Source of the DNA: a virus
Reading direction: 5' to 3' (one strand)
Virus record (IMG/VR): IMGVR_UViG_3300045988_153198
Length of the DNA: 64,000 nucleotides
Shown: positions 33,052-53,348 of the stretch, one piece after another
Layout of the letters: every line of letters begins with the position of its first letter
Numbering within the stretch: position 1 is the stretch's first letter
Made by a program: the position numbers and the translations under genes
Notes under the pieces: model-generated
The model's database searches: none
Told to the model about the DNA's origin: nothing
What the model saw: the letters and a program-made list of their open reading frames with translations, nothing else

Positions 33052-33396
33052 ATGCGTAAGAAAGGTTACAAGGGAAGATGTGAAAAGAAGAATTTAAGTA
33101 AAAGTCAGGAAGTATGCAGAACATACGATGCAATACAATCCAACTATGCAGATATTCTTCAGAATGACAACAACATACAGGAAATCAGATGCAATGTGTT
33201 GTTAGACGGTTTATCAGAAGGAGCTTATACCTCAGACTTTGTTTGTGTCAAATCAGATGGAGATTTGATGGTCAGGGAATGTGTTTTTAGAAAGTTTCTC
33301 ACAAAGCCTATGACAGTAAAGCTTCTGGATGCTTCAAGAGATTACTGGTTAAATCATGGTGTATCAGATTGGGGGATGGTCATTGATGAAGAATAG
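33052..33396 (+). CDS. tnsA: TnsA-like endonuclease, N-terminal-domain-only (114 aa)
   Basis: ATG 33052 follows CAGGAGGTG. AYTSDFVCV...GDLMVRECVFRK resembles the TnsA YTPDF...EVK core. The canonical Lys position is not obviously conserved. Confidence 0.55.
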   Translation: MRKKGYKGRCEKKNLSKSQEVCRTYDAIQSNYADILQNDNNIQEIRCNVLLDGLSEGAYTSDFVCVKSDGDLMVRECVFRKFLTKPMTVKLLDASRDYWLNHGVSDWGMVIDEE

Positions 33397-35233
33397 ATTA
33401 CAAAAGAAAATTACAAAGAATCAGCTATTACAGAATGATACTCAGCTTATAAGGGTTTTGGATATAGAAGCCTACAGAGTATTTGTCATTGACTGTATCA
33501 AAAAAACTATGCCAGTCTGGACAGATGCAGAATCATTAAAAGATTATCTTCCATGTTCTGAAGATACATTACAGGAAATCACAGATACTATTCTGATTGA
33601 CCTTGATAATTTAGATTCAGAAGGAAGAAAGACAGCATATGAAAGATATACAATGATTGCCCCTTTGCTGCCTTTTGTATCAGACCAGAAAAAACGAAAA
33701 GAACTGATAAACAGCCTTGCAAATATAAACTCAGTCAGCAAACAGACAATCAGATACTACCTCTGCTTATATCTGGTTTATCAGAATATATCTATACTTA
33801 TACGCAAGCAGAGTGTGAAAGAAAGCGTTTTATCTCAGGATGAGAAGAATATGAGGTGGGCTTTAAACAAGTTCTTTTATACCAAGCACAAGAACAGTTT
33901 GCCTGTGGCATATACGCTATTACTGAAAGAAAAATATTGTGATTCACTAGGAAATCTGCTGCCTGAATATCCTTCATTTTATCAGTTCCGATACTTCTAC
34001 AGAAGAACAAAAAAGATGCAGACCTATTATATTTCAAGAGATGGGTTGAAGGACTACCAAAAAAATAACAGACCGCTGCTAGGGGATGGAATACAAGAAT
34101 ATGCTTCGTCTGTAGGTATGGGAATGTTAGATGCGACTGTGTGTGATATTTACCTTATCAATGAAGCTGGTAATTTGGTAGGCAGACCGATATTGACAGC
34201 TTGCATAGATGCCTATAGTTCTTTATGTTGTGGTTATTCTCTGTCATGGGAAGGCGGTGTGTATTCTCTCAGAGGATTGATGTTAAATATCATTTCAGAT
34301 AAACAGAAGTGGTGTAGTCAATACGGTATCAGTATTAAGAAATCACAGTGGGATGCAGACAAGCTCCCAGCAATCTTTGTAACTGATATGGGTTCTGAAT
34401 ATAAATCTGAGAACTTTGAACAGATAACAGAACTAGGAGTAACTGTGGTAAATCTTCCATCTTACAGACCCGAACTGAAAGGAGCTGTGGAGAAATTTTT
34501 TGATTTAGTACAGAATACCTACAAGCCATATTTGAAGGGAAAAGGTGTAATAGAGCCAGATTATCAAGAGAGAGGTTCGCATGATTACAGGAAGGATGCT
34601 TGCCTTACTATGGTAGATTTTGAAAAGGTCATTCTCCGATGTATCATTTATTATAACTCACAGAGGATTATAGAAAATTTCCCATATACTGAAGGAATGA
34701 TACAGAATCAGATTCAGCCATTTGCAAGCAATATCTGGGAATGGGGAAAGACACAGATAGGGGCTAATTTGATTACAGTTGATAAAGAACAGATTGTATT
34801 GACCCTTCTTCCAAGGATTACAGGTAAGTTCTCCAGATTTGGACTCAGAGTAAACAAAATGCGGTATAAGCATGAGAATTTCACAGAAAAATATCTTGCT
34901 GGTGGAGAGGTAACAGTTGCCTACAATCCAGATGATGTATCAGCGGTATGGTTGATTGACAATGGTTCTTATATTCGATTTGACTTAATAGAAAGCCGAT
35001 ATAAGGGCAAGGAATTATCAGATGTAGAAATAATGCAGAAAGGTCAGAAAGAGCTTGTAAAGGCTGCTACAGCAGATAATATACAGGCACAGATTAACCT
35101 TGCACAGTCTATAGAAATCATTGCTGCATCTGTAAATAATCCTGATAAGGTCAATATAAAATCTATCAGGAATACCAGACAGAGAGAACAGACAAAGAAT
35201 CATATTGATTATATTAGGGGGATTGAAGCATGA
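33386..35233 (+). CDS. tnsB: TnsB/TniA-type DDE transposase
   Basis: DDE context MLDATVCDIY, FVTDMGSEYKS and PELKGAVEKFF, with a Mu-transposase-like C-terminal region. ATG 33386 overlaps the tnsA stop. Confidence 0.8.
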   Translation: MKNRLQKKITKNQLLQNDTQLIRVLDIEAYRVFVIDCIKKTMPVWTDAESLKDYLPCSEDTLQEITDTILIDLDNLDSEGRKTAYERYTMIAPLLPFVSDQKKRKELINSLANINSVSKQTIRYYLCLYLVYQNISILIRKQSVKESVLSQDEKNMRWALNKFFYTKHKNSLPVAYTLLLKEKYCDSLGNLLPEYPSFYQFRYFYRRTKKMQTYYISRDGLKDYQKNNRPLLGDGIQEYASSVGMGMLDATVCDIYLINEAGNLVGRPILTACIDAYSSLCCGYSLSWEGGVYSLRGLMLNIISDKQKWCSQYGISIKKSQWDADKLPAIFVTDMGSEYKSENFEQITELGVTVVNLPSYRPELKGAVEKFFDLVQNTYKPYLKGKGVIEPDYQERGSHDYRKDACLTMVDFEKVILRCIIYYNSQRIIENFPYTEGMIQNQIQPFASNIWEWGKTQIGANLITVDKEQIVLTLLPRITGKFSRFGLRVNKMRYKHENFTEKYLAGGEVTVAYNPDDVSAVWLIDNGSYIRFDLIESRYKGKELSDVEIMQKGQKELVKAATADNIQAQINLAQSIEIIAASVNNPDKVNIKSIRNTRQREQTKNHIDYIRGIEA

Positions 35234-36474
35234 TTGATTTTACAACGAAACTTCCAGAAATGAAATCAGGGAATGAACTTATATGTGCATTATCTATCAT
35301 TCCTGAATATGATGAAACCATATGCCAGCAGAACCAAGCAGTTAGATTAATGGCATTATCAGACCTGTACCAGATATATGTACCATCTCAGATGAGTATT
35401 GAAATCTATAATAAATTGTATCTTGCCTTGCTTCGTTCTATGCAAAAGAAAGGCTCTCAGATGGCTATAAAACAAAGATATGAGAACTATAAGGCAATGC
35501 AGCAGCAATCTTATAGCGGTATTCTGGGCGGTTCTGATTCATTCACAATTATCGGTACTTCAGGAATAGGTAAATCCTCTGCCATCAGCAGAGCTATATC
35601 CTTGATTACTGAAAATCGTATCATAGAAACAGACAAGCCATATACAAAGATTATCCCATGCCTGATTGTACAGTGTCCGTTTGATTCTTCAGTAAAAGGC
35701 TTGCTATTGGAAATCCTCAGAAAAGTAGATGAAGAACTGGGAACAGACCATTATATTCATGCAGTAAAATCCAGAGCTTCTACAACAGATATGCTTATAG
35801 GTGCGGTCAGCTCTATTGCATTAAATAATATTGGTATGCTGGTAGTAGATGAGATACAGAATGTTGTCAACTCCAAGAATGGAAAGAGCCTGATAGGTGC
35901 ATTGACTCAACTTATCAATAATTCGGGTATCTCTATTTGCATGGTGGGTACTCCTGAAAGTACAGTGTTTTTTGAACAGGCTATGCAGCTTGCAAGGCGG
36001 TCTGTAGGACTACAATATACAACTATGAAATATGATGAGTATTTCCAGAGCTTCTGCAAAGTGATTTTTAAATATCAATTTTTAAAAAATCATACAGAGA
36101 TAACCGCTGCTATTACAGAATGGCTATATGAACATTCTGCTGGTGTGGTTTCTGTTGTGGTATCTCTGATTCATGATGCACAGGAAATAGCAATTCTTAC
36201 AGGGAAAGAGGTTTTAAATCTGGATACTCTGAATGAAGCATACCAACAGAGATTAACATTGCTTCATGGATATATACAGCCCTCTGTGATTCAGAATAAA
36301 CCGACAACCAAAAAGAAAAAGACTGCTGCCAGTGTCAAAAAGAATCAGATACAGAGCCAGCCCAAACAGGAAAGATATTCTATCACTGAAATTGCAGAAA
36401 GAGCCAAAGCTGAGAATTTGGATGTAGTAGAATTGTTGAAAGAAGTTTATACCGTTATTGAGGTGGCAATATGA
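35230..36474 (+). CDS. tnsC: TnsC/TniB-type AAA+ ATPase
   Basis: Walker A GTSGIGKSS and Walker B LVVDEIQN. Start overlaps the tnsB stop (ATGA). Confidence 0.75.
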   Translation: MIDFTTKLPEMKSGNELICALSIIPEYDETICQQNQAVRLMALSDLYQIYVPSQMSIEIYNKLYLALLRSMQKKGSQMAIKQRYENYKAMQQQSYSGILGGSDSFTIIGTSGIGKSSAISRAISLITENRIIETDKPYTKIIPCLIVQCPFDSSVKGLLLEILRKVDEELGTDHYIHAVKSRASTTDMLIGAVSSIALNNIGMLVVDEIQNVVNSKNGKSLIGALTQLINNSGISICMVGTPESTVFFEQAMQLARRSVGLQYTTMKYDEYFQSFCKVIFKYQFLKNHTEITAAITEWLYEHSAGVVSVVVSLIHDAQEIAILTGKEVLNLDTLNEAYQQRLTLLHGYIQPSVIQNKPTTKKKKTAASVKKNQIQSQPKQERYSITEIAERAKAENLDVVELLKEVYTVIEVAI

Positions 36475-37823
36475 TAACATACCTTCCTGAAATATATCCA
36501 GATGAGCTTGTATATAGTTGGTTTTGTCGGTATGCAATCCATTCAGGATATACGTCACATAAACGAGTATTACAGGAGTTGTACTGTAAAAAATCAGATA
36601 CACCGATTAAAGAATTTATTGGTAATCTCAATCCTGAAGCAAGAGAATGTATTGATAAAATGTATCCGTTGAGGGATTTAGTATTAAATCACACCATGTA
36701 TCCTCAGTATGCCAGATTCATTCCATTGGAACAAAAGAAGGATGCTTTATATAAATTGTGTTATGAGAATTGTGATGCACACCATTTATTTGCAGTTCTT
36801 CCAAGGTGTGAGAAAGAACGCTACTTGAAATATTGTCCTGTATGTGCAAGTGAGGACAGACAGAGATATGGGGAAACATATTGGCACAGAAAACACCAAA
36901 TAAGGAATATGGGGATTTGTCCAAAACATAAGTGTAAGCTTCAGGACTCCAGCGTTTCAGCTAAAAGTATGAATATATATAATTTCTCTGCTGCTGAGAT
37001 TGCTATTCCTGATTCGGAAGAATATATACCTGTTGATAATCCTTTACAGATAAGATTTGCAGAGTACACAGAACAGGTTTTTGATACTCCTGTAGATTTT
37101 GAAAAGGATGTTCCACTCAGCACTATGTTGTATTATGCCATGAAGAATACAAAATATATGAAATCAACAGGAAGATGTCGATACATGACAAAGTTTGTTT
37201 CTGACATGACACGCTTTTATGAACAAATCGAACTGAATGAGATTGCCAGTATCGGAAGGATTCAAAGGACTTTGTTATCTGGGGAAAGATACGATTTTTC
37301 TCTTACCTGTCAGATTGGTTTCTTTCTGAATATGACATCTGAAGATTTGACTGCTCCTCAGTTATCGGAAGAACAGATAAAGATAGAAGAGGAAAGCCAT
37401 TATATCAAGGGAAAGACTACACCAGATTGGGAAGAATATGACAACAAAATGTCTCTTATCTTGGAACAGGTTGCAGAAGATATTTATAGCGGTGCTGCTG
37501 ATAGCATGGGAAAGCCTGAAAAGGTAACTGAGAAATTTATATGTAGGATACTGGGAATAAAGCAGCACCAACTTGAGAATATGCCTAAAAGCAGAGCTGT
37601 ATTAGAGAGATATTCAGAATCATATCCTGAATCATGGGCTAGAAAATTGGTATGGGCTTATGAGTGGCTTGAGAACAATGAGGAAGATGTATTTTACTGG
37701 AAACATCTCAGGAAACTCACAGGAGTTAAGAAAGAGCATTTTGATGAGATTATTCCATACCTTAAAAAGTATGCAGATGAGTATGAAGTGAAAAATATCA
37801 TAAAAATAGTTATGGGAGAGTAA
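36471..37823 (+). CDS. tniQ: TniQ-family target-selection protein
   Basis: N-terminal YPDELVYSWFCRY and zinc-ribbon CPVCASEDRQRYGETYWHRKHQIRNMGICPKHKCKL are typical of TniQ/TnsD N-terminal domains. Start overlaps the tnsC stop. Confidence 0.75.
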   Translation: MITYLPEIYPDELVYSWFCRYAIHSGYTSHKRVLQELYCKKSDTPIKEFIGNLNPEARECIDKMYPLRDLVLNHTMYPQYARFIPLEQKKDALYKLCYENCDAHHLFAVLPRCEKERYLKYCPVCASEDRQRYGETYWHRKHQIRNMGICPKHKCKLQDSSVSAKSMNIYNFSAAEIAIPDSEEYIPVDNPLQIRFAEYTEQVFDTPVDFEKDVPLSTMLYYAMKNTKYMKSTGRCRYMTKFVSDMTRFYEQIELNEIASIGRIQRTLLSGERYDFSLTCQIGFFLNMTSEDLTAPQLSEEQIKIEEESHYIKGKTTPDWEEYDNKMSLILEQVAEDIYSGAADSMGKPEKVTEKFICRILGIKQHQLENMPKSRAVLERYSESYPESWARKLVWAYEWLENNEEDVFYWKHLRKLTGVKKEHFDEIIPYLKKYADEYEVKNIIKIVMGE

Positions 37824-38642: not shown

Positions 38643-38948
38643 TTATTCTTTCTTGCTTTCACAAAATTTATGATGGTCAATTACCAAATCTATAGCATAC
38701 ACCTTCTTATTGGTGTTTTTATCCACATATGAACTTTTCTTGATTTTACCATTTACGAGTATTTTCATACCTTTATGCAAATATTTTCTTGCAAATTCAG
38801 CTTCTTTTCCAAAAGCAACACAATCAAGGAAATCAACTTTAGATTCCTTACCAAAAGGATTATCTACAGCCAAACAATATCTAACTACATTTTCACTTTT
38901 TGATTCTGGTTCATCTGTTAATCTCCCAGCTAATACAAACATATTCAT
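38643..38948 (-). CDS. ssb: Single-stranded DNA-binding protein, OB-fold only (no acidic tail)
   Basis: FVLAGRLTDEPE, YCLAV, DFLDCVAFGKEAEFARKYLHKGMKILVNGKI and SSYVDK align with bacterial SSB core blocks. Confidence 0.7.
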   Translation of the reverse strand: MNMFVLAGRLTDEPESKSENVVRYCLAVDNPFGKESKVDFLDCVAFGKEAEFARKYLHKGMKILVNGKIKKSSYVDKNTNKKVYAIDLVIDHHKFCESKKE

Positions 38949-39026: not shown

Positions 39027-39146
39027 TTAATATTCGTATCCAATCTCTTTCAGGTATGCTTCTACCTTCGGTTTCAGTTTCTTCGGAACATCATCAATAG
39101 TAATTTTCTCCATAATGATTTCACTAGCATACAGTCTTACTAACAT
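39027..39146 (-). CDS. XkdX-like small phage protein, copy 2 (39 aa)
   Basis: Internal ATG 39146 follows AAGGAGG. Translation is MLVRLYASEIIMEKITIDDVPKKLKPKVEAYLKEIGYEY. The track ORF is over-extended to a TTG at 39320. Confidence 0.55.
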   Translation of the reverse strand: MLVRLYASEIIMEKITIDDVPKKLKPKVEAYLKEIGYEY

Positions 39147-39222
39147 AGCAATTTCCTCCTTTAAATGAAAAATTAATAGTATATAAATAAAAAGAGAAGC
39201 AAACATATTGTTCACCTCTCTT

Positions 39223-39357
39223 TTATTTATCTGAATTTTCAGTATTCTGTTTATCAAGTTCTGCCTGAACTTCTTTCTGTAATTTTGTTGGAACATCATC
39301 AATAGTGATTTCACCAGCAATAATTTCGTTTAAGTATAATTTCACAAGCATTTTCAT
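39223..39357 (-). CDS. XkdX-like small phage protein, copy 1 (44 aa, not in ORF track)
   Basis: ATG 39357 follows TAAGGAGG. Translation is MKMLVKLYLNEIIAGEITIDDVPTKLQKEVQAELDKQNTENSDK. Paralogous to the next gene. Confidence 0.55.
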   Translation of the reverse strand: MKMLVKLYLNEIIAGEITIDDVPTKLQKEVQAELDKQNTENSDK

Positions 39358-39369
39358 AATGATACCTCC

Positions 39370-39750
39370 TTATGCAAATACCACATCTGCAATTTCCATA
39401 ATGCAACCTTTAAGCATCTCATTATCACTTGATAAGGAACGATTTTCATTTAAAAGATATTCAATCTTTTCCTTGTCACTTAATTCTACTGGGAGTTCTG
39501 CATCTTTTTTTGCATACTCAATCCAAGTATCGAGATTGCTTTTAATTTCTTCGAGTAAACCAGTACGATATTTTAACTCAAAACGATATGAGTCATATTC
39601 GTAATATTCGGTTGTAGTTTCTTCATCACCCATAGACATTGTTTTTGTTAATGTATCTGAGATATTTGTATTGATAATAACGTCACACAGTCCAGCACTT
39701 GTTCTTTCAATAATGACTGATTCTGGTCTTTGATTGCTTTCTGCTCTCAT
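39370..39750 (-). CDS. Acidic hypothetical phage protein
   Basis: ATG 39750 follows AAGGAGG. The start and RBS lie inside the last 44 nt of the RT gene. Confidence 0.5.
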   Translation of the reverse strand: MRAESNQRPESVIIERTSAGLCDVIINTNISDTLTKTMSMGDEETTTEYYEYDSYRFELKYRTGLLEEIKSNLDTWIEYAKKDAELPVELSDKEKIEYLLNENRSLSSDNEMLKGCIMEIADVVFA

Positions 39751-40849
39751 TTGCTACGACCTCCTTTAAAATTTTTATATTCACATTCTTTAGATATTTC
39801 ATATAAAAGAAATGTGAATCTGTATATTTAATAGTTCCTACATAAGAAAGACATCCAGCACATAAAGAAAAAGATAGCTTTTGGTGATTGGCTATCTTTT
39901 TGGATGCTTTATTATATTTTCTTCTAATTCGTAAAGAGGTTGCTCTACGAATTTCAATGTGGTCACGATAAAATTTATACCCCATAAAGTCAAGAAATCT
40001 TCCACGATGGATAGGTTTACCAACTTTTTGACTAGCCTTTTTATCAATATAGTCTAATCTAAATACTTGCCAGTTACTTTTGATTTCCAAACCAAGAGTA
40101 GCACAATATTTATCTAACTCACGTTTTACACGATGCAGTTCCTTTTTGTTTTTACCAAAAATACAACCATCATCCATATAAAAAATACAATACTTCACAC
40201 GAAGTTCTTCTTTTAAATAGTGACACACATAACTAATAACAAAATTACATAGCCATTGAGATGTAACACTACCAATAGGAAGCCCATCATCATAACTGTA
40301 AAGAATTGTTTCTGCTAACCATAATACCTTTTTGTTACGAATTTTTCTTTTCAATAAATCCATAACAATATCAGGCTTGATATGTTGATAGCATTTCTTA
40401 AAATCTATTTTCAGACAATACTTAGTATTTTTATGGTCAGTTTCCATCCATCTCTTTACAAATTTCCTTCCGTATGTACCACCACGATTAGGAATACTTG
40501 CACATTGATGAACATAAAATTGCTTCATAAAAATATCTTCGCAAGCCAATACAAAAATCCAATGATATATCTGAGATAACATACTTGTTGAAGCAATATC
40601 CCTTATCTTATGAGTAGATGTATCATATACTTGTGATACATGGTATTCATCAGGCTTTCGTTTTTCTAAAATTAAACTTCTTTGAATACGCTCTGCTAGA
40701 TAAGCAATTTTTATTTCAATAGTATCTCCCTTACACCAGTTTATTAAATTCTTTGTTTCTGCCCTATGCCACTTGCCTTCCAGAGCTTTATAAATAGCAG
40801 CAATTATGAAATTAATATCTGTAATATCTTTAGTCACATAAGATTTCAT
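39707..40849 (-). CDS. DGR reverse transcriptase
   Basis: RT motifs include LPIGSVTSQWLCNF (the DGR-type [I/L]GxxxSQ) and IFYMDDG (YxDD). Start set to the first ATG after the TR (40849, MKSYVTKD...). Confidence 0.85.
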   Translation of the reverse strand: MKSYVTKDITDINFIIAAIYKALEGKWHRAETKNLINWCKGDTIEIKIAYLAERIQRSLILEKRKPDEYHVSQVYDTSTHKIRDIASTSMLSQIYHWIFVLACEDIFMKQFYVHQCASIPNRGGTYGRKFVKRWMETDHKNTKYCLKIDFKKCYQHIKPDIVMDLLKRKIRNKKVLWLAETILYSYDDGLPIGSVTSQWLCNFVISYVCHYLKEELRVKYCIFYMDDGCIFGKNKKELHRVKRELDKYCATLGLEIKSNWQVFRLDYIDKKASQKVGKPIHRGRFLDFMGYKFYRDHIEIRRATSLRIRRKYNKASKKIANHQKLSFSLCAGCLSYVGTIKYTDSHFFYMKYLKNVNIKILKEVVANESRKQSKTRISHY

Positions 40850-41012
40850 TAAGTTCTTTCTTAATCTCAAAGATGTTTGAATAAAATAATATTCTACTAA
40901 CCTCTGCTGCACCGATGAATTTTTACCAAGCGGTATGGCAAGCCTACTCAATTTGAACTCCAAACTGGTAGGTAGATTGTGTATTAAGATTTTATGAAAA
41001 TTATTAAGAAGT

Positions 41013-41125
41013 GCGAGCAGCAATATTCCACCACGCATTACCGACATCGTTGTTGCAATTCCAATAGACAAGCCCATCGTTAGCACCGTTATTCAAATTA
41101 CCGCCAACGTACACGACACGCAGCC
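41013..41125 (-). repeat. DGR template repeat (TR)
   Basis: 113 bp, 98/113 identical to 41493-41605. In the target frame it encodes GGNLNNGANDGLVYWNCNNDVGNAWWNIAAR, with nine AAY codons. Confidence 0.9.
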
Positions 41126-41230
41126 ACCGCAATACACAAAATCCCGACAAATAAATTACCATCAATCATGTTTTTATAATTGAATCTAGTGCAATAATCA
41201 AGTTACTTTTTAATGTGTTCAAAAATAATA

Positions 41231-41290
41231 GGAGAGATGTTCGTCTTAGTACCGCCAACACTTTACTAATCCGTTTCACAACATCTCTCC
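41231..41290 (-). other. Structured element between VR and TR
   Basis: Perfect 11-bp stem GGAGAGATGTT / AACATCTCTCC with an inner 6-bp stem TTAGTA / TACTAA. The loop contains TACCGCCAAC, identical to TR positions 41100-41109. Followed on the minus strand by TATTATTTTT. Confidence 0.5.
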
Positions 41291-41445
41291 TAAATCTTCT
41301 AATCACCAAATTCAAAAACTTAAAATCCTTATTTTATCCTAGAGATTAATTTTCTCCTTTTCTATATTTTTTTGTAATTCAACTTCTTAATAAATTAACA
41401 TTGAATCTGCTATTTAGTATGATATTGTATCTGCTTTTAATAATA

Positions 41446-41466
41446 CTGGGGGTTGGTCACCCCCAG
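41446..41466 (-). other. GC-rich hairpin just downstream of VR (candidate DGR target-recognition hairpin)
   Basis: CTGGGGGT-TGGTC-ACCCCCAG, 9-29 nt past the fibre stop codon. It sits in an otherwise AT-rich spacer and has no counterpart next to the TR. Confidence 0.6.
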
Positions 41467-41474
41467 ACCCCCAC

Positions 41475-43328
41475 CTACGCAGTATAGGAAAGGCGAGCAG
41501 CAATAATCCACCCCGCACTACCGACAGCGCTGCTGCAATTCCAAAAGACAAACCCAGCGAGAGCACCGTTAGGCAAACCACCGCCAACGTACACGACACG
41601 CAGCCCTGTGTTCTTCCAGTAATAATCGCAGAAATACTGGTTGGACGCACCACCGACAACAATCGGCAAACGCACGTATGGATGCTCCGCATCCCATCCG
41701 AGTTCCTTCGTCCATCCTTCGGATGAACAATTGACATAGCCAATCTGTTCATAATCTGAAGTAATAGAATTTGCAAACTTAGTTGGGTCTTTGCACACAT
41801 ATGTCTGATAATCCTGAATTAACACATCAGCCATAATAGACCACTGATTACCCCACAAATCCTCAATGTATCTATAACGCATCTGATATTTACCAGAAGT
41901 ATTTGACACCGCACTACCAGAAGGAGTAATAACAGAATCAGACCCACCAGAGAACCAACAACGAGAAGAAATATAATTTCCAACTGCTACATTAACAGCA
42001 GCTCCATCAAATACAATTGCTTTATTAGAAGCATCATATGTTTCAATAGAGGTAATTCTTCTATTGTTTGCAATCTCAGAACCATTCTTTGTTGAACCAA
42101 TAACAATTGTTTGACCAACAACATAGTTAGCTGCAATATCATTAGCACAAATAAATTTGTTTCCATTTGTTGTAGCAACAGTAACGACATCATTTGCATT
42201 ATCATATCTCATATAAGCTGCACCATACATAACATCCTGAGAGTTACGTGTTGCAAATTCTACATAGAATAACAACTCATTAATCTGTCTATCTTTTGTT
42301 GTTTCGATATGATAATTCGTACCAAGCTTACTTCTAAGTAATGACTTATAACCATCATAAGAACGACTAAGCATAGTATTAATACCACTATATGATACTG
42401 GATTACCAGAAGCATCCAGACCAATTTTATAACATGGATAATAATAAGTATCCATTACAGAACCATCCAGATTAACAAATCTTTCAGGAATTTCATAACC
42501 ATCAAGGTGCTGGTCAGAAATCCAAATTTCATAGTATGTATCAGTAAATACATATTTGTAATAGAATAAATGTCTTTCTGCATATACATTTCCATTAGAA
42601 CCATCGACTGCAAAATTTGGCTCACCTTCTACAGCAGTAACAACAAAATTTTTTCCATCCCAATGTCCATTTACTCTACGAGATTTCCAAGGCATAAGAT
42701 AATCAAAATCATTATATGCATCTACTGTATCTGTACCTACATTTGCCACTAATCCAATAGCATCACCTAAACGCTCACCTTTTGGATTAGAACCAGCGGT
42801 ATAAAGTGGAAAACGTACACCCCATTCTTTTGGACGATTAGTGGACAACACTTTTAACATAGCTTCGATTTTATTTGAACTATATGTTGTGCCAGCACCA
42901 GCCTTACTATCATTAATTCCAATTTTTTCTGCCACAATAGCTTCCGCAGCAGCAGCAGCGTTATTTGCTCTCTCTGTAGCAGTAGTGGCATTACCACTTA
43001 AAATTTCTATTTTATTGGTAAAACCATCGACAATTCCTTTAGCTTTTTCATATTCTGCAATACATTTTGCTACTTCAGCTTTCGCCAAAGTTACCTGTTC
43101 TGTAGCAGTATTGATATTTGTCTGTGAACTTGTATTTAATTCTTCAATCTTCTTCAACTGAAATACATAGCCAAGATTCTTCCAAGGGGTAGAACCATCA
43201 CCTAATTTCATATTGATATAGCCATCTGTAGTACGCTCTAAAGCTGGTTCATTTAAAGCTAAGATTCTATTTGAAGATTCCCAGTTGGCAGTTGTATCAG
43301 TTTTCAACGTAATAGTTGATGTTGCCAT
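41475..43328 (-). CDS. Tail fibre / receptor-binding protein, DGR target
   Basis: Mtd_N-like N-terminus (TDTTANWESSNRILALNEPALE...KLGDGSTPWKNLGY). C-terminal lectin-like VR ...GGGLPNGALAGFVFWNCSSAVGSAGWIIAARLSYTA. Confidence 0.85.
   Translation of the reverse strand: MATSTITLKTDTTANWESSNRILALNEPALERTTDGYINMKLGDGSTPWKNLGYVFQLKKIEELNTSSQTNINTATEQVTLAKAEVAKCIAEYEKAKGIVDGFTNKIEILSGNATTATERANNAAAAAEAIVAEKIGINDSKAGAGTTYSSNKIEAMLKVLSTNRPKEWGVRFPLYTAGSNPKGERLGDAIGLVANVGTDTVDAYNDFDYLMPWKSRRVNGHWDGKNFVVTAVEGEPNFAVDGSNGNVYAERHLFYYKYVFTDTYYEIWISDQHLDGYEIPERFVNLDGSVMDTYYYPCYKIGLDASGNPVSYSGINTMLSRSYDGYKSLLRSKLGTNYHIETTKDRQINELLFYVEFATRNSQDVMYGAAYMRYDNANDVVTVATTNGNKFICANDIAANYVVGQTIVIGSTKNGSEIANNRRITSIETYDASNKAIVFDGAAVNVAVGNYISSRCWFSGGSDSVITPSGSAVSNTSGKYQMRYRYIEDLWGNQWSIMADVLIQDYQTYVCKDPTKFANSITSDYEQIGYVNCSSEGWTKELGWDAEHPYVRLPIVVGGASNQYFCDYYWKNTGLRVVYVGGGLPNGALAGFVFWNCSSAVGSAGWIIAARLSYTA
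41493..41605 (-). repeat. DGR variable repeat (VR)
   Basis: C-terminal 38 codons of the fibre, ending 5 codons before the stop. 15 differences from the TR, 13 of them at TR adenines on the coding strand. Confidence 0.9.
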
Positions 43329-43860: not shown

Positions 43861-44451
43861 TTAATTCAATATACTTAGAGCATTTCCAGCATCTAATTTA
43901 TAAGGGTCAACAGTAGTAGCGTTACCACCATCAATATTTTGCACATCAAAACTTGTGGCATTACCAGCAGCTATATTTAAAACCAATCCTTCTTTTGCAG
44001 AATTAATTTCATCCAAATAACTCTGAATTTCTTTTAGCATTTGTTGTGTTGCCTGAATTAAAGAGTTGTTTACTAACTCATCAATCTCTTCACGAATTTG
44101 AACTACATGAGCTTCAGATGCAGAAATTGTAATTTCTGCTTCCTGTATATTTTTTAGTGAATCCGCAAATGATTGAGATGTTTGCTTCCATGTTGAAGAA
44201 AAAGAATCATAGAGATTCTTGGTATTTAGATAAGCATTATAAGTATTGATATATGTTTGATTAACTAAATCATAATCAAAGCTATAACCCAAATCATTCC
44301 AAGGTGTTTTTCCATCACCGATTTTTAATTTCCAAGGAGAAGCAGATTGTTGAGCTACCTCAACCGCAATCTCTCTTTCTTCTAATATAGGATTTGATTT
44401 TTTCCAGTTTTCTGCTGTATCTCCACGAATACGAATTTTAATATAAGCCAT
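43861..44451 (-). CDS. Short tail fibre with Mtd_N-like N-terminus
   Basis: Start set to ATG 44451 (MAYIKIRIRGDTAENWKKSNPIL...KIGDGKTPWNDLGY) behind GGAGGT. Confidence 0.6.
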   Translation of the reverse strand: MAYIKIRIRGDTAENWKKSNPILEEREIAVEVAQQSASPWKLKIGDGKTPWNDLGYSFDYDLVNQTYINTYNAYLNTKNLYDSFSSTWKQTSQSFADSLKNIQEAEITISASEAHVVQIREEIDELVNNSLIQATQQMLKEIQSYLDEINSAKEGLVLNIAAGNATSFDVQNIDGGNATTVDPYKLDAGNALSILN

Positions 44452-44470
44452 AATTACCTCCATCTTATAT

Positions 44471-44503
44471 AAAAAGAGAGTTGCCATAATAATGACAACC
44501 CTC
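44471..44503 (-). terminator. Imperfect terminator after the giant fibre gene
   Basis: 9/11-bp stem (GAGAGTTGCCA / TGACAACCCTC on the plus strand), followed on the minus strand by TTTTTATATAAG. Confidence 0.45.
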
Positions 44504-44518
44504 TAGTTTTAATGAAAA

Positions 44519-47500
44519 TTATCTTGCATAAATGTCCAAATTCTTAGTCCAGTTTGTAGACACAGCATTGGCAGCAGCATAGTTGCTTAATTTTGAACAA
44601 TTGTACAATGCACCAAAATAACCAGTTGTATCAGATACAATGGCACTAAATGTGTTACCATCCCAGAAAAATGGAACAGTACCAGAGATGTTAGAACATC
44701 TATAAAATAATGCACCAATGTATTTCAACTTGGTATTCTTCAGCTCTCCATGTAAGAATCCTGAAGAAACAGATGAGATATTTGTAAATGCGAACATACC
44801 ATATGCATTAACAAGAGTATTAATACAGTTAATCATAAATGTATTAGTAATTGCTCCTGTTAAATTATCAATACCATAGAACGCTTCATTAGCATATTGT
44901 AATGCGGTCTGTTTTGCAAATAAATTCTGTGGAATACTACAAGCTGGTAATTTAAAACATTCTCTAAATATAGCAGCAATAGTAGTAAGAGCCACACATT
45001 TTGCAAACATATCAGATGCACAAATATAATCTACATCTAATGATTCATCATGATAGGCTGCATTTAATCCACGACACTTTCTAAACATACCAGAAATATC
45101 TTTCAATTCAGTATATTTATCAGTGATACTTGAAGTATAGAATATATCGTCAGGAATACCGCCTGTAAGTCCTTCACAATCATAAAATAGATAGGAAGCA
45201 CTTTTTAATTTAAGACAATCTGCCAAAAATCCTTTCTGTGTAATATTTCCTGACTCATCTTTACTTCCTGTTGGCAATTCTCCACTAAGTTCTAAGCATC
45301 CCCAGAACATATAAGAAACATCTTCCAATGTCTCTCTACATGAATTAAATAAGGATACAGGAATAGAACCCTGAAGTAATGCACAATTATAAAACAGATA
45401 TGAAGTATCTTTTAAAGAAATACATCCATCAAATAATCCTGTAGGAATAGTAAATGAATGATTACTATTAGAACCAAAGAATTGTTTTACTGTTTGTAAT
45501 TTTATACAATCTTTAAACAATTCTTTTTTAATTCCAACCATAACAGAATTATCTAAATCCGTACCACTTAACAAAGTACAGTTATCGAACATATAAGAAG
45601 CATCAATAATGTTATTCTTACATGGTTCGAAAATAGATATTATTTTTCCATTGACTTCTTTATATGGAATACAACCTTTCAATCCTTTACAATAACGGAA
45701 AGCATTAGATACATTCTGAAGTAATGGATTTCCATTAAACATATTAATTGATAAGCTGTTAGTATATTCTTTTTCTACACCGTTCTCTCTATAATAGCAA
45801 TATTTTAATGCTTCATTATTTGTACCAGAACTATGATAGAACAAATAACTTGCATCCAATAAGTTAGGAAGAGTGGCGAGAAAATCTTCAAAATATCCCT
45901 CTATTTTAGTATTACCAAAGAATCCATATAAAGTATAACGATAAGAACTCATTGGCAGATTATCTGTAATAGCTTGTCCAATTTGTTTTAAATTACTTGC
46001 ACCAATAAAGAAATCACTTTGTACATCGCCAGTTAAAGCTGTGCAATCATAGAACATTGATTTTGCAGCAGTAAGATAAGGTAATTCATTATCGTCTGAT
46101 TCTTTCACTCTAAATAACCGACTTGGCAATCCAGTTATCTTTGAACAACCAGCAAATACACCATTTGCAGTAGTCAACAATACATTTTTTGCAAAGAAAC
46201 CATTAGGTACATTTCCAGTAAGAGCTGCACAACCATAAAACATATAAGAAGCATCTTTTAAATTTACTAATGGGTCTAACATACCAGATAATCCATTTGT
46301 ATTAATCAATTTTATACAATTATGAAACATTGCATAAGTTGATGTAATGTTTGGAGTATTAGCAAAGATATTACAATTAGAATGAATAAAATTAACCAGA
46401 TTTGTACATTCACCAAACATTCTTGAAACATCAACCAAACTAACTGCTTTTTCAAATACATTCTGGTCAATAGAAACTAAATCTCTACAAACATAGAACA
46501 TATAAGAAGCATTTTGAAGTTTTGTCAGATTATCAAATAATGCTTTAGGAATCTTGGTTAATTTATTACTAATAAATGCACATGAAGCAGTAGTAATATT
46601 TGGCGTGTGTGCAAACAAATCACTAGGTATTGTCTGCTCAGTTTTACATCCCCACATAAGGTCATTAATATTCTTCAGACTTTCATCACAAGCATATAAA
46701 ACCTTTCTTGCCATAGCATATGTAGGTGTTCCACCATTACCACCATTTACATAGAACAAATAAGATATATCTGTAACACCAGCAAAATCAAATGTTAGAT
46801 TGTTAATATCTGTCAAGACATAACAATATCTAAATAAATATCTTGCCAATGATGTACATTTTAAATATCCTGTTACTCTCTGTAAAGAGTTACAACCATC
46901 AAATAATGCATCCATATTTGAAGTTACATAATTAATATTTTCAATTGCTTTGATGCTTGTACAGTTCTGAAATGAAATAGATGAAAGTTTAGATAATTGT
47001 TTCATATCACACTTTCTATCTGATTCAGCAATTTCCGCAGAACCATACTGAATAGAAATAATACTTGAACTTCGAATGTTAAGGGTTTCCAGTACATTCC
47101 AAAGTTGAGCATTACATTCTTCATCTGTTAAATTAGGATTATTGGCTTTCAAAGCAGCAACTCTATTTGCTTCATCCTGAGAAATATATTTTGGCAAACG
47201 AATATTTTTCAAAGAAGTTGAATTGCTTACATCCAATTTTTTCAATTTATACAGAGTATATAAATGCAAATCATTCATCATAGAACCATTATTGTTTGAC
47301 ATTAATAACTGATAAATATTAGGACAATTTGTTAATTCAAATGTTTCCAATACTTTACAATTACTTACATCAACACTTTGTAAATTCTTACAATTGATTG
47401 CATTAAAGATAACCACAGGTGAACCAGATAAAGACACATTTTTAATTGCAGAACAAGAATCAATAATATATTCTGTAATACTATTGCATCCATCAATATT

Positions 47501-50500
47501 CACTTCGGTTAAAAATTCAAGTGATTTAAAATATAAATTCTTAATACTTGATTTTGATAAAATAGCGGTTTGTAAATTGCTACCTTCTGCAAAGTTGACA
47601 GTTACTATTTTAGTATTTGTAATATCCAATTTTTGAATATTTTTACATCCTGTCAAATCCAAGACCTGACCACCATTAGCAGTACCAAGTTGAACAGAAC
47701 CACTACAATTCAATTCTCTAAGATATTTATTGTTACCTAAGATTAATCTACTCATACGAGATGAACCAGACAAATCAAGTTTTAAAATCTTTGTAGCATT
47801 TGCAATCGTCAAATCACGAATATTCAAATCTTCAAGTTTATTAAGTAATTGAATACCTCCAGCAGCACTAATAGTAATTTCCTTATCGGTTGCTTTTACA
47901 GGGAACGTAAATAATGTACCTTGCACTTCTCGTTTTGTATCAGGGTCAATATAAGTTGAGTTCTGTGATACATATGCAGTAATAATAGCATCACGACCAG
48001 AACCAACACTAATAGTTACATACTGAGGAGTATAGGTTAATATACCAATATAAGCTTTTAATGTACTAGCTTCATCTTTGGATTCTTCTGTATTACCTGT
48101 TAATAAATAAGCATCGGTACGTAATGAAATTTCTCCATTGATAGAATTAGTGTTATCTTCAGAATATCTATAATCAAAAATAGTATCGCAAAAATCAAGA
48201 CGTTGAGAAATCCATTGTTTAAATCTTTGCAATCTATTTCCATGTAACATTTTTAAATATTCTGTATTCGTTGCAGATGTTTGAGTAAGATATTTTGCAG
48301 CCATATCTTTATTATAGAAAATCTCACCGATTAAATCAGTTGTGTGAGCTTTATAGTATTTCATAATATAATCTACATCATAAACCGATTTCCTTAAATT
48401 TTGATAAAGCTTTTTCAACTCTTCACTATATTCTTTAGCAAAAGTATTCCAGAATTTTGAGGTTTTGGTATTGTAAGAAGCATATCTCAATTCTGTTAAA
48501 CTATTTGTTGAATAATCAGCAAATGTACCTGTAGCAACAGTAGGAGAAAGGGCTGGAATCATTTCTGCATCAACACCAATACTTTCAGTACCAGTATTTG
48601 CCAAGCCAGCTTGTGTATCCATATCATAAGGACGCACATACCATTTCTTACCATCCCATGTATCCCACATTGAGTTTTTACCAGCATTATCTACTTGACC
48701 AAACACTACCATTTGTAAATAATAAGCAGCAGCATATGTAAAGTCAAAATGCTCTGTGAAATATTCTTTAAAGGTATTATTATTTACTGCATCAGAAACA
48801 CCATTAATCATATCTCTTAATGCACCATAAGCCAGTTCTAAATCATGTTCTGTTGGATTTTCTTTATCTTCCAACTCTGAATAATCATATCTTGCTTCAA
48901 AATCGGCACTAACATAATCATATTCACTATAACTTGCCTGAAATTCGTCAAATGTTTTATAAGTGACAGCCTTTCCTTCAGGAGTTGCTTTAAAATCTTC
49001 CATAGAAAATGCATTTGCAGAAAGTCCATGTGATTTTAAATATGCTACATACGCTTCTTCATAACAATCTTCTACATAATAATTATATACGTTTCTAATT
49101 GATTCACTCAGTTTATAAAAACAACCAGCAGTATCAGAAGCGTTTGCTGTTCCTTCAAAGCTTTGACATTTGTTCTTAATTGGATTACCTTCTTCGTCAG
49201 TAAATTGTTGTCCATTTGAATCTGTTACTTTTACATCAAATCCCAATGTCTTTCCCTTTTTATCAATATTGAACATATATGAACCGACAAGAGTTAATTT
49301 TGATGTATCTTTTTCATCATCTGTATAATAAACAATAACTGGAAATCCATCAATCGCATCTTTATAACCATTTGCTTTTGCTGGACTCTGACCACCTAAA
49401 ATAGTAATTAAATCATTATAGAATTTTGCTGTAGGTGTATTATTAAGATGAGAGCTTTCCATATAATCACATTTAAGAGTAAATGTATTTTCCTTTTCCC
49501 AATCATCTTTCATTTGTACTTTAAGTTTAGAAGTATGTGCTTCGTCAGCATACAATTTTAACTTATAATTCTTTACAGGATATTGCAAAGAAGAAGTACC
49601 CTGAAGAAATACAGAAACATTCTCCCATACAGTAATTGTTCCATCTGGATTCTGAATTTCAACTACACATTCAACATATGTTTTGTTGGATGTTGCTTTA
49701 TCAGTAATAGAGTTAAGAACTTCAAAATTACTGTTATTTTCGATATTTTTTCTTTTGAATGTAATAACTGGAAGCTTATTGGTTGTTATATCATTTTTCT
49801 CTTTTAATGCATTTTGTTCTGTTAAATCATAGATAGATGAAATATAGTTCTGAAGAACCTGACTAGAATCCAAATAATGATTGTAAAGTCTAATCATTTT
49901 AATTTCACATTCACCAAAATATGATGGGATGTTTTGAACCAATGATGCATTTAACATCAGTGGATAAGCATTTCCTAAAGAATCCAAGAACTTATCATTT
50001 GTTAATGCAGTAACAGAACATAAAACACCATTGATATAAATTCTCATAGTAGGAATTGGATTCATATTTTCAATATTTGTCAAACCAACCTTTTCAAGAC
50101 TACGAATATTTCTATCAATAACAAATGTAGCGTGTACCCACTCATCTTCAGCAAAACCAAGATTTGTATTCTGAGAAGATGAACCAATATATAAATCTTC
50201 ATGTGTTACTGAAAAACCAGCGGTGTTTGTATCAACACCTTTCTGACAAGTGACAACTCTTGCTTTCATTTCTCCTACACATCTTGTTCTAAAAACAAGC
50301 TCAAGAGAATATCCTTCAGTACCATCATTAAATCCAGCTAAAGGGCAATATCTTTCGCCAGTATTCTTATTTATCATTTCACCATAAGAATTACCAGTAA
50401 ACTTCAACATCATTTCGCCAGATTCAGAATCACTCAATGATTCATCTACGTGTTTCCAACCATTTGTATTATAGTTTAAATCATGCAGTTTGATTTGATA

Positions 50501-53331: not shown

Positions 53332-53348
53332 AGTATAACCTTAACAGT
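53332..53348 (-). promoter_or_regulatory. Recurrent 17-mer, copy 7 (minus strand, ACTGTTAAGGTTATACT)
   Basis: 15/17 match. Oriented with minus-strand transcription and touches the endolysin stop. As at copy 1, a hairpin follows it before the next gene. Confidence 0.5.

Follow-up and report, generated by a model that had tools for sequence, protein, structure and literature searches.

A probable accessory-less diversity-generating retroelement at the tail-fibre locus of a large uncultured gut-type phage

A 64,000-nt stretch of viral DNA (the window, from a genome of ~130 kb) carries a tail-fibre gene, two repeats and a reverse transcriptase (RT) gene in close succession, which raises the question of whether these parts form a diversity-generating retroelement (DGR) and whether that element is complete, as the initial annotation had proposed. 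Both 113-nt repeats were found where they had been reported, with the template repeat (TR) at 41013-41125 and the variable repeat (VR) at 41493-41605, on the minus strand and offset by exactly 480 nt. The 15 reported mismatches were likewise recovered at their positions. Thirteen are T on the plus strand, corresponding to A on the TR coding strand, and the two exceptions, at 41033 and 41072, are coding T>G and C>T changes, respectively. Given that 23 of the 113 TR nucleotides are adenines, 13 or more of 15 mismatches would coincide with A sites by chance with p = 2.6e-9 (hypergeometric). All 23 adenines occupy codon position 1 or 2 in the VR frame, and they are distributed over 14 codons (nine AAY, two GAT, two TAY and one ATT). 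The translations, including the nine AAY Asn codons of the TR, were also correct; the TR encodes a peptide ending in GGNLNNGANDGLVYWNCNNDVGNAWWNIAAR, whereas the VR spans target codons 575-612 and is followed by five codons (LSYTA) before the stop at 41475-41477. One correction is required, as weak TR/VR homology runs 8 nt further 3′, to 41005/41485 (121 nt, 85%). No third VR-like copy was found within the 64-kb window.

Natural variation was assessed in 55 loci (54 related loci plus the window). A TR/VR pair was recovered in 43 of these, with 458 mismatches at A versus 14 elsewhere. Two related genomes, L001 and L002, are 96.6% and 98.5% identical to the window. Their TRs differ from that of the window at one and three positions, respectively, whereas their VRs differ at 14-20 sites (20 in L001 and 17 in L002), mostly at TR-A sites. 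TR changes at non-adenine positions reappear in the VR of the same genome (G>T in L001; TGG>AAC in L002, with GAC in the VR). A recurrent TGG>GGG change was also noted. Because unrelated VRs occur in genomes that are only 1.5-3.4% diverged, and because TR changes are already present in the VR, homing appears to have occurred within the timescale of strain divergence. Among 112 natural target proteins, the entropy peaks coincide exactly with the 14 TR-adenine codons; 1,562 of 1,568 residues at these codons (99.6%) belong to the set allowed by A-to-N substitution, and K, E, Q, M and W are never found at AAY codons. Within the 81% group, all 101 C termini are distinct (101/101), versus 48 distinct N-terminal parts. 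The expectation that variation would track TR adenines is thus borne out in natural relatives: only TR-adenine codons vary, and they do so in accordance with the A-to-N rule. These observations show that the element has been active in nature, a reading that extends to the copy in the window through comparison between genomes.

The gene that is rewritten (41475..43328, minus strand) encodes a 617-aa tail-fibre protein, matching phrog_5302 'tail protein' (6e-45) and phrog_17147 (1e-49), and is the last in a run of fibre genes that comprises a 2,551-aa protein, a 208-aa protein, two small ORFs and the target. More than 110 natural homologues share 77-97% identity. The proposed Mtd_N-like N terminus (residues 8-47; 43188..43307, minus strand) stands in part. 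PHROG tail-fibre N-terminal families match it (7e-6 to 4e-11), whereas the Pfam match to PF18454 is weak (E 0.0015; 18.9 bits, below the 26.3 cut-off); the 208-aa neighbour (43861-44487) clears that cut-off, with 31.9 bits (1.3e-7). The C-terminal 338 residues (41478..42491, minus strand) were predicted to form a receptor-binding module with a C-type-lectin fold of the FGE subtype and an inserted beta domain (AlphaFold2 with 58 diverse homologues; pLDDT 96.4, pTM 0.91). The best Foldseek match in the PDB is TaqVP of a Thermus aquaticus prophage DGR (5VF4, E 3.4e-8), and a profile search gave the same structure (5vf4_A, E 3.9e-12) with the VR stretch included. Structural neighbours in BFVD are gut-phage and crAss-like tail fibres, with gut-phage tail-collar fibres matching at TM 0.91; the family comprises 1,885 clusters at 50% identity, and no Pfam model matches the module. 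By both model and profile, the C terminus is a C-type-lectin-type DGR variable domain, in line with the lectin-like fold that had been expected. TaqVP has an FGE-subtype fold with inserts and places its VR on the last strands, and its DGR is similar in genetic structure to that of Bordetella phage (PMC6328139). It is the closest solved relative of the module by profile and fold, but the TM-score is just ~0.45 because the inserts differ. Furthermore, TaqVP (381 aa) consists of one domain and is monomeric, whereas the module studied here caps a 617-aa fibre that also has a coiled coil and an Mtd_N-like N terminus.

The ORF downstream of the TR (39707..40849, minus strand) encodes a 380-aa DGR RT (RVT_1, 4e-16; phrog_1423, 7e-81) and contains LPIGSVTSQ and YMDD, as claimed. 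Its best PDB match is the Bordetella phage DGR RT (bRT; 8ub7_A, E 1.9e-12), with the catalytic Asp, IGSxTSQ and YMDD aligned. It shares I-G-x-x-x-S-Q with bRT, whereas the aligned group II intron RT has Q-G-x-x-x-S-P, which bears out its assignment to the DGR type. Translation almost certainly starts at ATG 40849 rather than at GTG 41086 inside the TR (a 459-aa ORF), because the homologues are 380-381 aa long. Separating the TR from the RT is a 163-nt spacer RNA region (40850..41012, minus strand; direct reading and alignment to L003/L004), which includes a hairpin of varying length at ~40945-40975. It also contains a structured RNA, RT-18 (Rfam RF03021; 40854..40935, minus strand), which ends at the RT ribosome-binding site and scores 56.2 bits (E 2.9e-8), above the gathering score of 41.3. 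All 13 related loci that were scanned have RT-18 at the equivalent place (14/14 with the window). The TR-RT gap of BPP-1 is occupied likewise, by RT-10, the only such RNA that Weinberg et al. 2017 linked to a DGR, the others having been speculated upon (PMC5737381). Here, RT-18 lies inside bona fide DGR cassettes at all of these loci, and its role is putatively in priming or RT binding.

Three further non-coding elements, all on the minus strand, may take part in priming and homing. Directly 5′ of the TR, the segment UUGUGUAUU (41131..41139) is complementary to spacer positions 40977-40985 (RNAduplex) and is a candidate counterpart of the BPP-1 'cPRT Stop' duplex (bioRxiv 10.1101/2023.10.23.563531). 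Helices between the upstream segment and the spacer were found in all six RT families, with differing sequences; those of L007 and L010 are significant (15 bp, p ~0.001) and that of the window is weak (p ~0.06). A template:primer duplex was also sought at the locus, and none was identified. At the other end of the homology, a putative IMH region (41485..41503) consists of the invariant VR 3′ end (TTGCTGCTCGC) and 8 nt over which, on the alignment, the VR (CTTTCCTA) and the TR (ACTTCTTA) diverge; its function would be analogous to that of BPP-1 IMH/IMH* (PMC5758913, PMC3240598). A GC-rich hairpin with an 8-bp stem, CTGGGGGT-GACCA-ACCCCCAG (41446..41466; RNA fold and hairpin scan), follows 26 nt past the end of homology and 8 nt past the stop codon. 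Given the precedent of a hairpin after the BPP-1 VR (PMC3240598), it is a candidate DGR target-recognition hairpin or cruciform, and it may also be a terminator. A TGGGGG...CCCCCA hairpin occupies the equivalent site in the window, L003, L006, L007 and L049, whose RTs are 31-71% identical and which represent five of six RT families; L010, of the sixth family, has a different, AT-richer hairpin there.

The ~320 nt separating VR and TR (41126..41445, minus strand) are non-coding. Their sole ORF, of 49 aa with a TTG start, is not conserved in L003, the three-frame translations are stop-rich, and no recognisable Avd gene or remnant was found there. This VR-TR spacer shares islands of conservation with L003 and L004, including a stem formed by GAGAGATGTT (41280-41289) and AACATCTCTC (41232-41241; minus strand; direct reading and repeat search), whose arms read GAATAT/ATATTC at the aligned place in those two loci. 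Its loop contains a 10-nt match to the TR (GTTGGCGGTA, 41250-41259).

Could the repeats instead be an ordinary duplication, with the TR a decaying partial copy of the fibre 3′ end and the tip varying by positive selection or recombination? The TR does lie inside a 53-aa ORF (41004-41165), and hypervariable tail-fibre tips are common. However, point mutation or recombination would not confine the differences to the adenines of one copy, as is seen both here (p = 2.6e-9) and across the 43 loci (458 versus 14), and would leave the A-to-N restriction unexplained; moreover, the conserved copy is the non-coding one, and it is adjoined by a conserved RNA and by an RT bearing DGR motifs. The confinement to adenines and the residue set refute a duplication in practice, leaving it a negligible probability. 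A DGR that was once active but is now inert in the window genome, its VR differences being inherited history, would fit with the two non-adenine TR/VR differences, with the failure to find Avd and with the fact that activity of this copy is read from between-genome comparison rather than from reads of one population. Such a fossil is nonetheless very unlikely, as the RT reading frame is unbroken and retains every catalytic motif, the TR, RT-18 and hairpin are conserved, and genomes so little diverged carry unrelated VRs into which TR point changes have already been copied.

A more serious alternative is that the cassette is incomplete, with the DGR relying on Avd or a functional equivalent supplied from another part of the phage genome or by the host. 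Sequence conservation among Avd proteins is poor, DGR components are able to work in trans (PMC5758913), bRT without Avd is inactive (bioRxiv 10.1101/2023.10.23.563531), and the visible sequence is 64 kb of ~130 kb. Pfam searches (E <= 0.01) of 40 small ORFs from the window and of 36 ORFs next to five related families detected no Avd homologue, a distribution that indicates the known accessory-less architecture. All six RT families, in quite different phages (contigs of 30-170 kb), lack Avd within ~6 kb, and four have a VR-TR spacing of 190-257 nt, too short to accommodate the gene. Furthermore, Wu et al. 2018 found no distant avd for avd-less DGRs; their survey places 29% of DGRs in the class that has no accessory gene, and it proposes Avd-independent homing (PMC5758913). 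Dependence on a remote Avd is thus unlikely, and the element is probably Avd independent. Completeness holds for an accessory-less architecture, but not by the Bordetella paradigm, in which Avd is essential. An acidic ORF (126 aa, pI 4.4; 39370..39750, minus strand), conserved in L001-L004, shares its first 44 nt with the end of the RT gene; it may be an accessory gene or just an ordinary phage gene. At 51 of 55 loci, the 3′ end of the RT is overlapped by a small acidic ORF, but hhalign does not support homology across families (probability 0.4%), and no Pfam or PHROG match was found for the 126-aa protein. It resembles CH1, whose genes encode small, acidic proteins of 160-169 aa and are restricted to avd-less DGRs (PMC5758913), but it is shorter, and homology was not demonstrated on testing. 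A TniA/B/Q module adjoins the locus.

Taken together, the adenine signature, RT, lectin fold and natural variation favour a DGR of accessory-less target-TR-RT architecture in a large, uncultured, low-GC gut-type phage, with a probability of roughly 0.93. With the BPP-1 DGR (mtd-avd-TR-brt) it shares a tail-fibre target with the VR at the extreme 3′ end, a TR directly upstream of the RT, adenine-specific differences in AAY codons, the RT catalytic Asp, IGxxxSQ and YMDD, a structured TR-RT spacer RNA and a GC-rich 8-bp hairpin past the VR (PMC3240598). By contrast, it lacks avd, its spacer RNA is RT-18 rather than RT-10, its hairpin loop has 5 nt (GACCA) rather than the 4-nt GRNA of BPP-1-type phage DGRs, RT identity is low, and its lectin domain, which contains a large inserted beta domain, resembles TaqVP and matches Mtd only weakly (1yu4, E 0.11); the phage itself is large, low in GC and of gut type. 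In gene organisation, on one strand and without avd, HRDC or MSL, it resembles the DGRs of Architecture A1 and of avd-less Lineage 3 of Wu et al. 2018; Lineage 3A was reported from Bacteroides and relatives (PMC5758913). An uncultured phage, a tail-fibre target, a C-terminal lectin-type VR and activity visible as population variation are also features of human-gut phage DGRs (Hankyphage, PMC6199706; crAss-like LMMB, PMC7290462; viral clades of Roux et al. 2021, PMC8144416). Among 50,697 GenBank phage records, there was no nucleotide match and the best protein match was 32%; relatives were found only in IMG/VR and metagenome contigs.

By homology to BPP-1, the transcript would span the 113-nt TR together with the 163-nt spacer and its RT-18 structure. 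The adjacent RT would bind this transcript and reverse transcribe it, probably priming in cis from the spacer RNA and copying template adenines unfaithfully, and the cDNA would replace the homologous VR at the 3′ end of the fibre gene. Direction would be set by the diverging IMH-like 3′ ends and the GC hairpin just past the VR, whose role in homing is suggested by the same analogy. Fourteen codons on the predicted ligand-binding face of the TaqVP-like domain would thereby be rewritten, allowing about 4e13 protein variants. This kind of element is already well known, and the locus is a clean, evidently active example of the Avd-less minority type. Diversification of the fibre tip presumably alters receptor and host specificity, and thus would affect the host range of the phage.

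The initial annotation had described a diversity-generating retroelement (DGR) built on two 113-nt minus-strand copies lying exactly 480 nt apart, the template repeat (TR) at 41013-41125 and, ahead of it in gene order, the variable repeat (VR) at 41493-41605, and both the coordinates and the spacing were confirmed. The 15 TR/VR mismatches also fall at exactly the positions it listed, and 13 of them are coding-strand adenines in the RT-proximal copy. Given 23 adenines in the 113-nt TR, the probability that at least 13 of 15 mismatches lie on adenine sites is 2.6e-9. The remaining two mismatches replace Trp606 with Gly (T>G on the coding strand, at 41033) and Leu593 with Phe (C>T on the coding strand, at 41072). 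As expected of a DGR, the VR lies at the 3′ end of a coding target, the 617-aa tail-fibre open reading frame (ORF) at 41475-43328 (minus strand), and ends five codons ahead of its stop, whereas the AAY-rich TR carries nine AAY Asn codons and has 23 of 23 adenines at codon position 1 or 2 of the same frame. A third TR/VR copy or a second VR was not found within the 64-kb window.

The same adenine-specific differences that mark the window as a DGR recur in related loci. When the window is added to the 54 IMG/VR loci that encode relatives of the reverse transcriptase (RT), 43 of the 55 yield a TR/VR pair, and over these 43 loci 458 mismatches were located at template adenines versus 14 elsewhere. 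Over 8-13 kb, the window shares 96.6% identity with the contig of locus L001 and 98.5% with that of L002. Relative to the window, the templates of these two contigs carry 1 and 3 differences and their VRs 20 and 17, most of them at adenine sites. In L001, a non-adenine template change, G>T, is found in both TR and VR; in L002, the TR reads AAC in place of TGG, and the corresponding VR codon is GAC. Because these non-adenine template changes are mirrored in the VR of the same genome, information has passed from template to VR after the window, L001 and L002 strains split.

An alignment was also made of 112 natural target proteins with 77-97% identity to that of the window. The entropy maxima coincide exactly with the 14 adenine-containing codons, and 1562 of the 1568 residues at these codons (99.6%) are reachable by changing A to any base. 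GAT codons give rise to D, A, G or V only, and AAY codons never to K, E, Q, M or W. In the largest subgroup, all of the C-termini are distinct (101/101), versus 48 distinct N-terminal parts. The expectation that population variation would be confined to TR adenines was borne out by comparing genomes and proteins, which exhibit hypervariation at TR-adenine positions with a constant TR, rather than reads from one population. With near-identical genomes, more than 100 protein variants and TR point changes visibly propagating to the VR, the window represents an unusually clean natural example of a DGR.

Variation was also observed at one adenine-free codon. The TGG>GGG change (Trp606Gly; TR 41033, VR 41513) is present in the window and in loci L003 and L004, at about TR position 96 in the latter two, that is, in three of the six close loci (window and L001-L005). 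Gly occupies residue 606 in 18 of the 112 natural proteins, whereas the other adenine-free VR codons vary in at most 2% of them, lineage-specific TR differences aside. Half of the non-adenine mismatches in the clade (7/14) are T>G, and four of those seven occur in a TGG context. The recurrent TGG>GGG change might reflect selection or site-specific misincorporation, which the sequences do not tell apart.

The RT ORF (39707-40849, minus strand) is best read from the ATG at 40849 as a 380-aa protein, because close homologues are 380-381 aa long and a longer, GTG-initiated ORF would cross the template. The protein matches RVT_1 (Pfam) and phrog_1423 at 7e-81. Its best PDB match is 8ub7_A, with an E value of 1.9e-12 versus 2.4e-5 for the group II intron RT GsI-IIC, in agreement with the original assignment to DGR rather than group II intron RTs. 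Chain 8ub7_A was identified as bRT, the RT of the Bordetella phage BPP-1 DGR, because D138, I181, G182, Q187 and D215/D216 are numbered as in the bRT cryo-EM paper (bioRxiv 10.1101/2023.10.23.563531). Common to bRT and the window RT are the catalytic Asp, IGxxxSQ and YMDD: IGSVTSQ aligns to I181-Q187, YMDD aligns to 213-216 and the catalytic Asp is aligned as well. At the place where the window RT has IGxxxSQ, the aligned group II intron RT has QGxxxSP. The best NCBIfam matches (group II intron RT/maturase, retron St85 RT and Drt3a) were all far under their cut-offs. By sequence and profile matching, the protein exhibits the palm [I/L/V]GxxxSQ and YxDD motifs of DGR-type RTs and is closer to these enzymes than to group II intron or retron RTs.

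The target matches PHROG tail-protein families. Pfam searches of the target and of its C-terminus gave no match even at E 10, apart from a sub-threshold Mtd_N (PF18454) at the N-terminus (18.9 bits, E 0.0015; Pfam cut-off, 26.3). Two fibre genes lie upstream, at 43861-44487 (minus strand, 208 aa) and 44519-52174 (minus strand, a 2551-aa giant). A putatively Mtd_N-like N-terminus of roughly 50 aa seems to be common to all three proteins, scoring 31.9 bits in the neighbouring 208-aa fibre protein, and a VR is present only in the last of these genes.

The C-terminal part of the target belongs to a much larger group. An exhaustive search with the last 338 aa (41478-42491, minus strand) returned 1885 clusters at 50% identity with E <= 1e-3, 748 of them with E <= 1e-10, and the module is joined to varied fibre N-termini, including BppU_N, collagen and tail-collar. 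PDB searches with the single target sequence and with a shallow alignment (A1) returned nothing. Only a profile of diverse representatives, 58 in number and drawn from these clusters, matched TaqVP (PDB 5VF4; E 3.9e-12), the C-type-lectin variable protein of a Thermus aquaticus prophage DGR (PMC6328139), in an alignment that takes in the TaqVP variable region. AlphaFold2, supplied with the same 58-sequence alignment, produced a model with a pLDDT of 96.4, for which TaqVP was the sole significant fold in a Foldseek search of the PDB (E 3.4e-8); the Mtd structure 1yu4 was a weak match (E 0.11). In BFVD, the structural neighbours are fibres of human-gut phages, annotated as 'tail collar fibre' proteins (TM up to 0.91), along with TvpA-like and FGE-like entries. 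With TaqVP ranked first by both profile HMM and Foldseek, the C-type-lectin fold anticipated for the fibre C-terminus is upheld, and the model suggests that the variable residues are displayed on a lectin scaffold. No Pfam model covers this 338-aa TaqVP-like lectin module, a very large family that merits a family model of its own.

The window appears to derive from a large, low-GC phage. Relatives are found on IMG/VR contigs of 130-170 kb, and the window itself combines a plus-strand nucleotide-metabolism and replication block with a minus-strand tail module. Among GenBank phages, megablast matched the 5-kb region to none, and the best tblastn matches of the target, unannotated phage contigs from human faeces, were no more than 32% identical. 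Because a scan of 185,579 species genomes revealed no relative of the RT, assignment to a host or prophage is not possible. Within the tail module, a 578-aa CHAP + SH3 protein (53348-55084, minus strand) resembles tail-associated peptidoglycan hydrolases, a hint that the host may be Gram-positive.

Several neighbouring features were recorded. Consecutive genes at 33356-37823 (plus strand), encoding a TniA-like protein with a Mu-transposase C-terminal domain (625 aa), TniB (414 aa) and TniQ (450 aa), make up a transposition module like that of Tn7/Tn5053 elements within the phage genome. This module lies about 1.9 kb from the DGR cassette on the opposite strand, has a GC content of 0.36-0.38 versus 0.30-0.32, and recurs in L001, a related contig. 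Immediately past the DGR lie an SSB-family protein and small CD1375-like/XkdX-like ORFs (38643-38948 and 39027-39320, both minus strand; Pfam SSB, 3.6e-19), the latter containing a 45-nt direct repeat (39078-39122 / 39283-39327). In L010, a distantly related phage locus, a stretch some 2 kb past the DGR strongly matches Rfam FuFi-1 RNA (8998-9158, minus strand; 124.6 bits).

Potential cis elements were identified on both sides of the template. A GC-rich hairpin at 41446-41466, with an 8-bp stem containing 6 GC pairs, begins 8 nt past the stop codon and 26 nt past the VR, the position shortly downstream of the VR at which DGRs carry such inverted repeats. The TGGGGG...CCCCCA hairpin after the VR is kept in five of six RT families, the RTs of which are just 31-71% identical to that of the window. 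Its loop in the window is 5 nt, in contrast to the 4-nt GRNA loop of BPP-1-type hairpins. At their 3′ ends, TR and VR have TTGCTGCTCGC in common, beyond which they diverge (CTTTCCTA versus ACTTCTTA), a putative counterpart of IMH/IMH*, the BPP-1 directionality elements; a long (GC)14-type element like that of BPP-1 is lacking. Between the template and the RT start, at 40854-40935, a full-length match (model 1-84) to the Rfam family RT-18 (RF03021) scored 56.2 bits, exceeding the gathering score of 41.3. RT-18 occupies the same place in 13 of 13 related loci scanned, which ties this hitherto orphan 'RT-associated' motif to DGR cassettes. In addition, a helix can form between the spacer and the stretch immediately 5′ of the template in all six families, with differing sequences; the helix is 15 bp in L007 and L010 (p about 0.001) and 9 bp in the window (p about 0.06), and it recalls the BPP-1 'cPRT Stop' duplex. 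No convincing candidate emerged for a BPP-1-like primer:template duplex involving the TR 3′ end and the spacer, and a promoter scan was uninformative (10 sites versus 11.3 expected).

Between VR and TR, the segment 41232-41289 (minus strand) contains a 10-bp inverted repeat, GAGAGATGTT / AACATCTCTC, the loop of which holds a 10-nt match to the TR, GTTGGCGGTA. Because the arms at the aligned place in L003 and L004 are exchanged for GAATAT/ATATTC, this inverted repeat is suggestive of a conserved stem. A conserved AAAGGAGAAAATT at about 41354-41366 is followed by no ORF.

Avd (PF05635), the accessory protein of BPP-1-type DGRs, was found neither among 40 small ORFs of the 64-kb window nor among 36 ORFs around five related families. 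The 320-nt VR-TR gap contains no conserved ORF, and its three-frame translation has no recognisable avd remnant; a 49-aa basic ORF in this spacer was discarded, as it is not conserved in L003. In L006, L007, L010 and L049, there is no room for avd because the VR-TR spacing is only 190-257 nt. Avd occurs in 74% of DGRs and is hence not universal. The window DGR is an example of the accessory-less Architecture A of Wu et al., which makes up 29% of DGRs in that study, in which Avd-independent homing was proposed (PMC5758913). It is a known variant rather than a new kind, accessory-less cassettes having been on record since 2018 (PMC5758913). Tens of thousands of DGRs are on record, many of them on the tail fibres of gut phages, where they are thoroughly catalogued (PMC8144416), and as a DGR the element is expected.

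An acidic ORF at 39370-39750 (minus strand; 126 aa, pI 4.4) starts 44 nt ahead of the RT stop. In 51 of the 55 loci of this avd-less clade, a comparable ORF (99-180 aa, pI 4.3-4.7) starts within the RT gene, 12-100 nt short of its stop codon, for example at L003:7103-7489, L007:7112-7654, L010:6918-7226 and L049:4109-4576, and in some loci it is followed by an XkdX gene. The N-termini appear similar by eye across families, but hhalign did not support between-family homology (probability 0.4%). No Pfam or PHROG family matched the ORF, and identification as XkdW or another family was abandoned when Pfam gave no assignment. It may be an accessory gene, for which the acidic accessory gene CH1 of Wu et al. 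is a precedent, or a plain phage tail-module gene.

By homology with BPP-1 (PMC5758913, PMC6182149, PMC3240598, bioRxiv 10.1101/2023.10.23.563531), a transcript containing the template and the 163-nt spacer would be bound by the RT, cDNA synthesis would be primed from the spacer RNA, and adenines would be copied unfaithfully. The cDNA would then substitute for the VR; the diverging 3′ ends would determine the direction of this step, and the DNA hairpin its efficiency. This would randomise the 14 codons, for residues on the ligand-binding face of the fibre-tip lectin domain, with a computed protein repertoire of about 3.9e13. The roles that we infer for RT-18, the hairpin and the upstream:spacer helix would all support this BPP-1-like picture. 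However, bRT is inactive without Avd (bioRxiv 10.1101/2023.10.23.563531). A tentative reading, to which we assign a probability of roughly 0.3, is that this phage DGR clade works without Avd and that RT-18 alone sets template and primer on the RT, via a helix with the segment 5′ of the TR, possibly helped by the acidic protein translationally coupled to the RT.

The TR, the 163-nt spacer with RT-18, the 380-aa RT and the VR-side hairpin form a compact candidate set for engineering. It could serve to test if certain DGR RTs can dispense with Avd, a point of relevance to DGR-based directed-evolution tools. If the proposal is true, the Avd-less clade would represent a mechanistically distinct, minimal form of mutagenic retrohoming.
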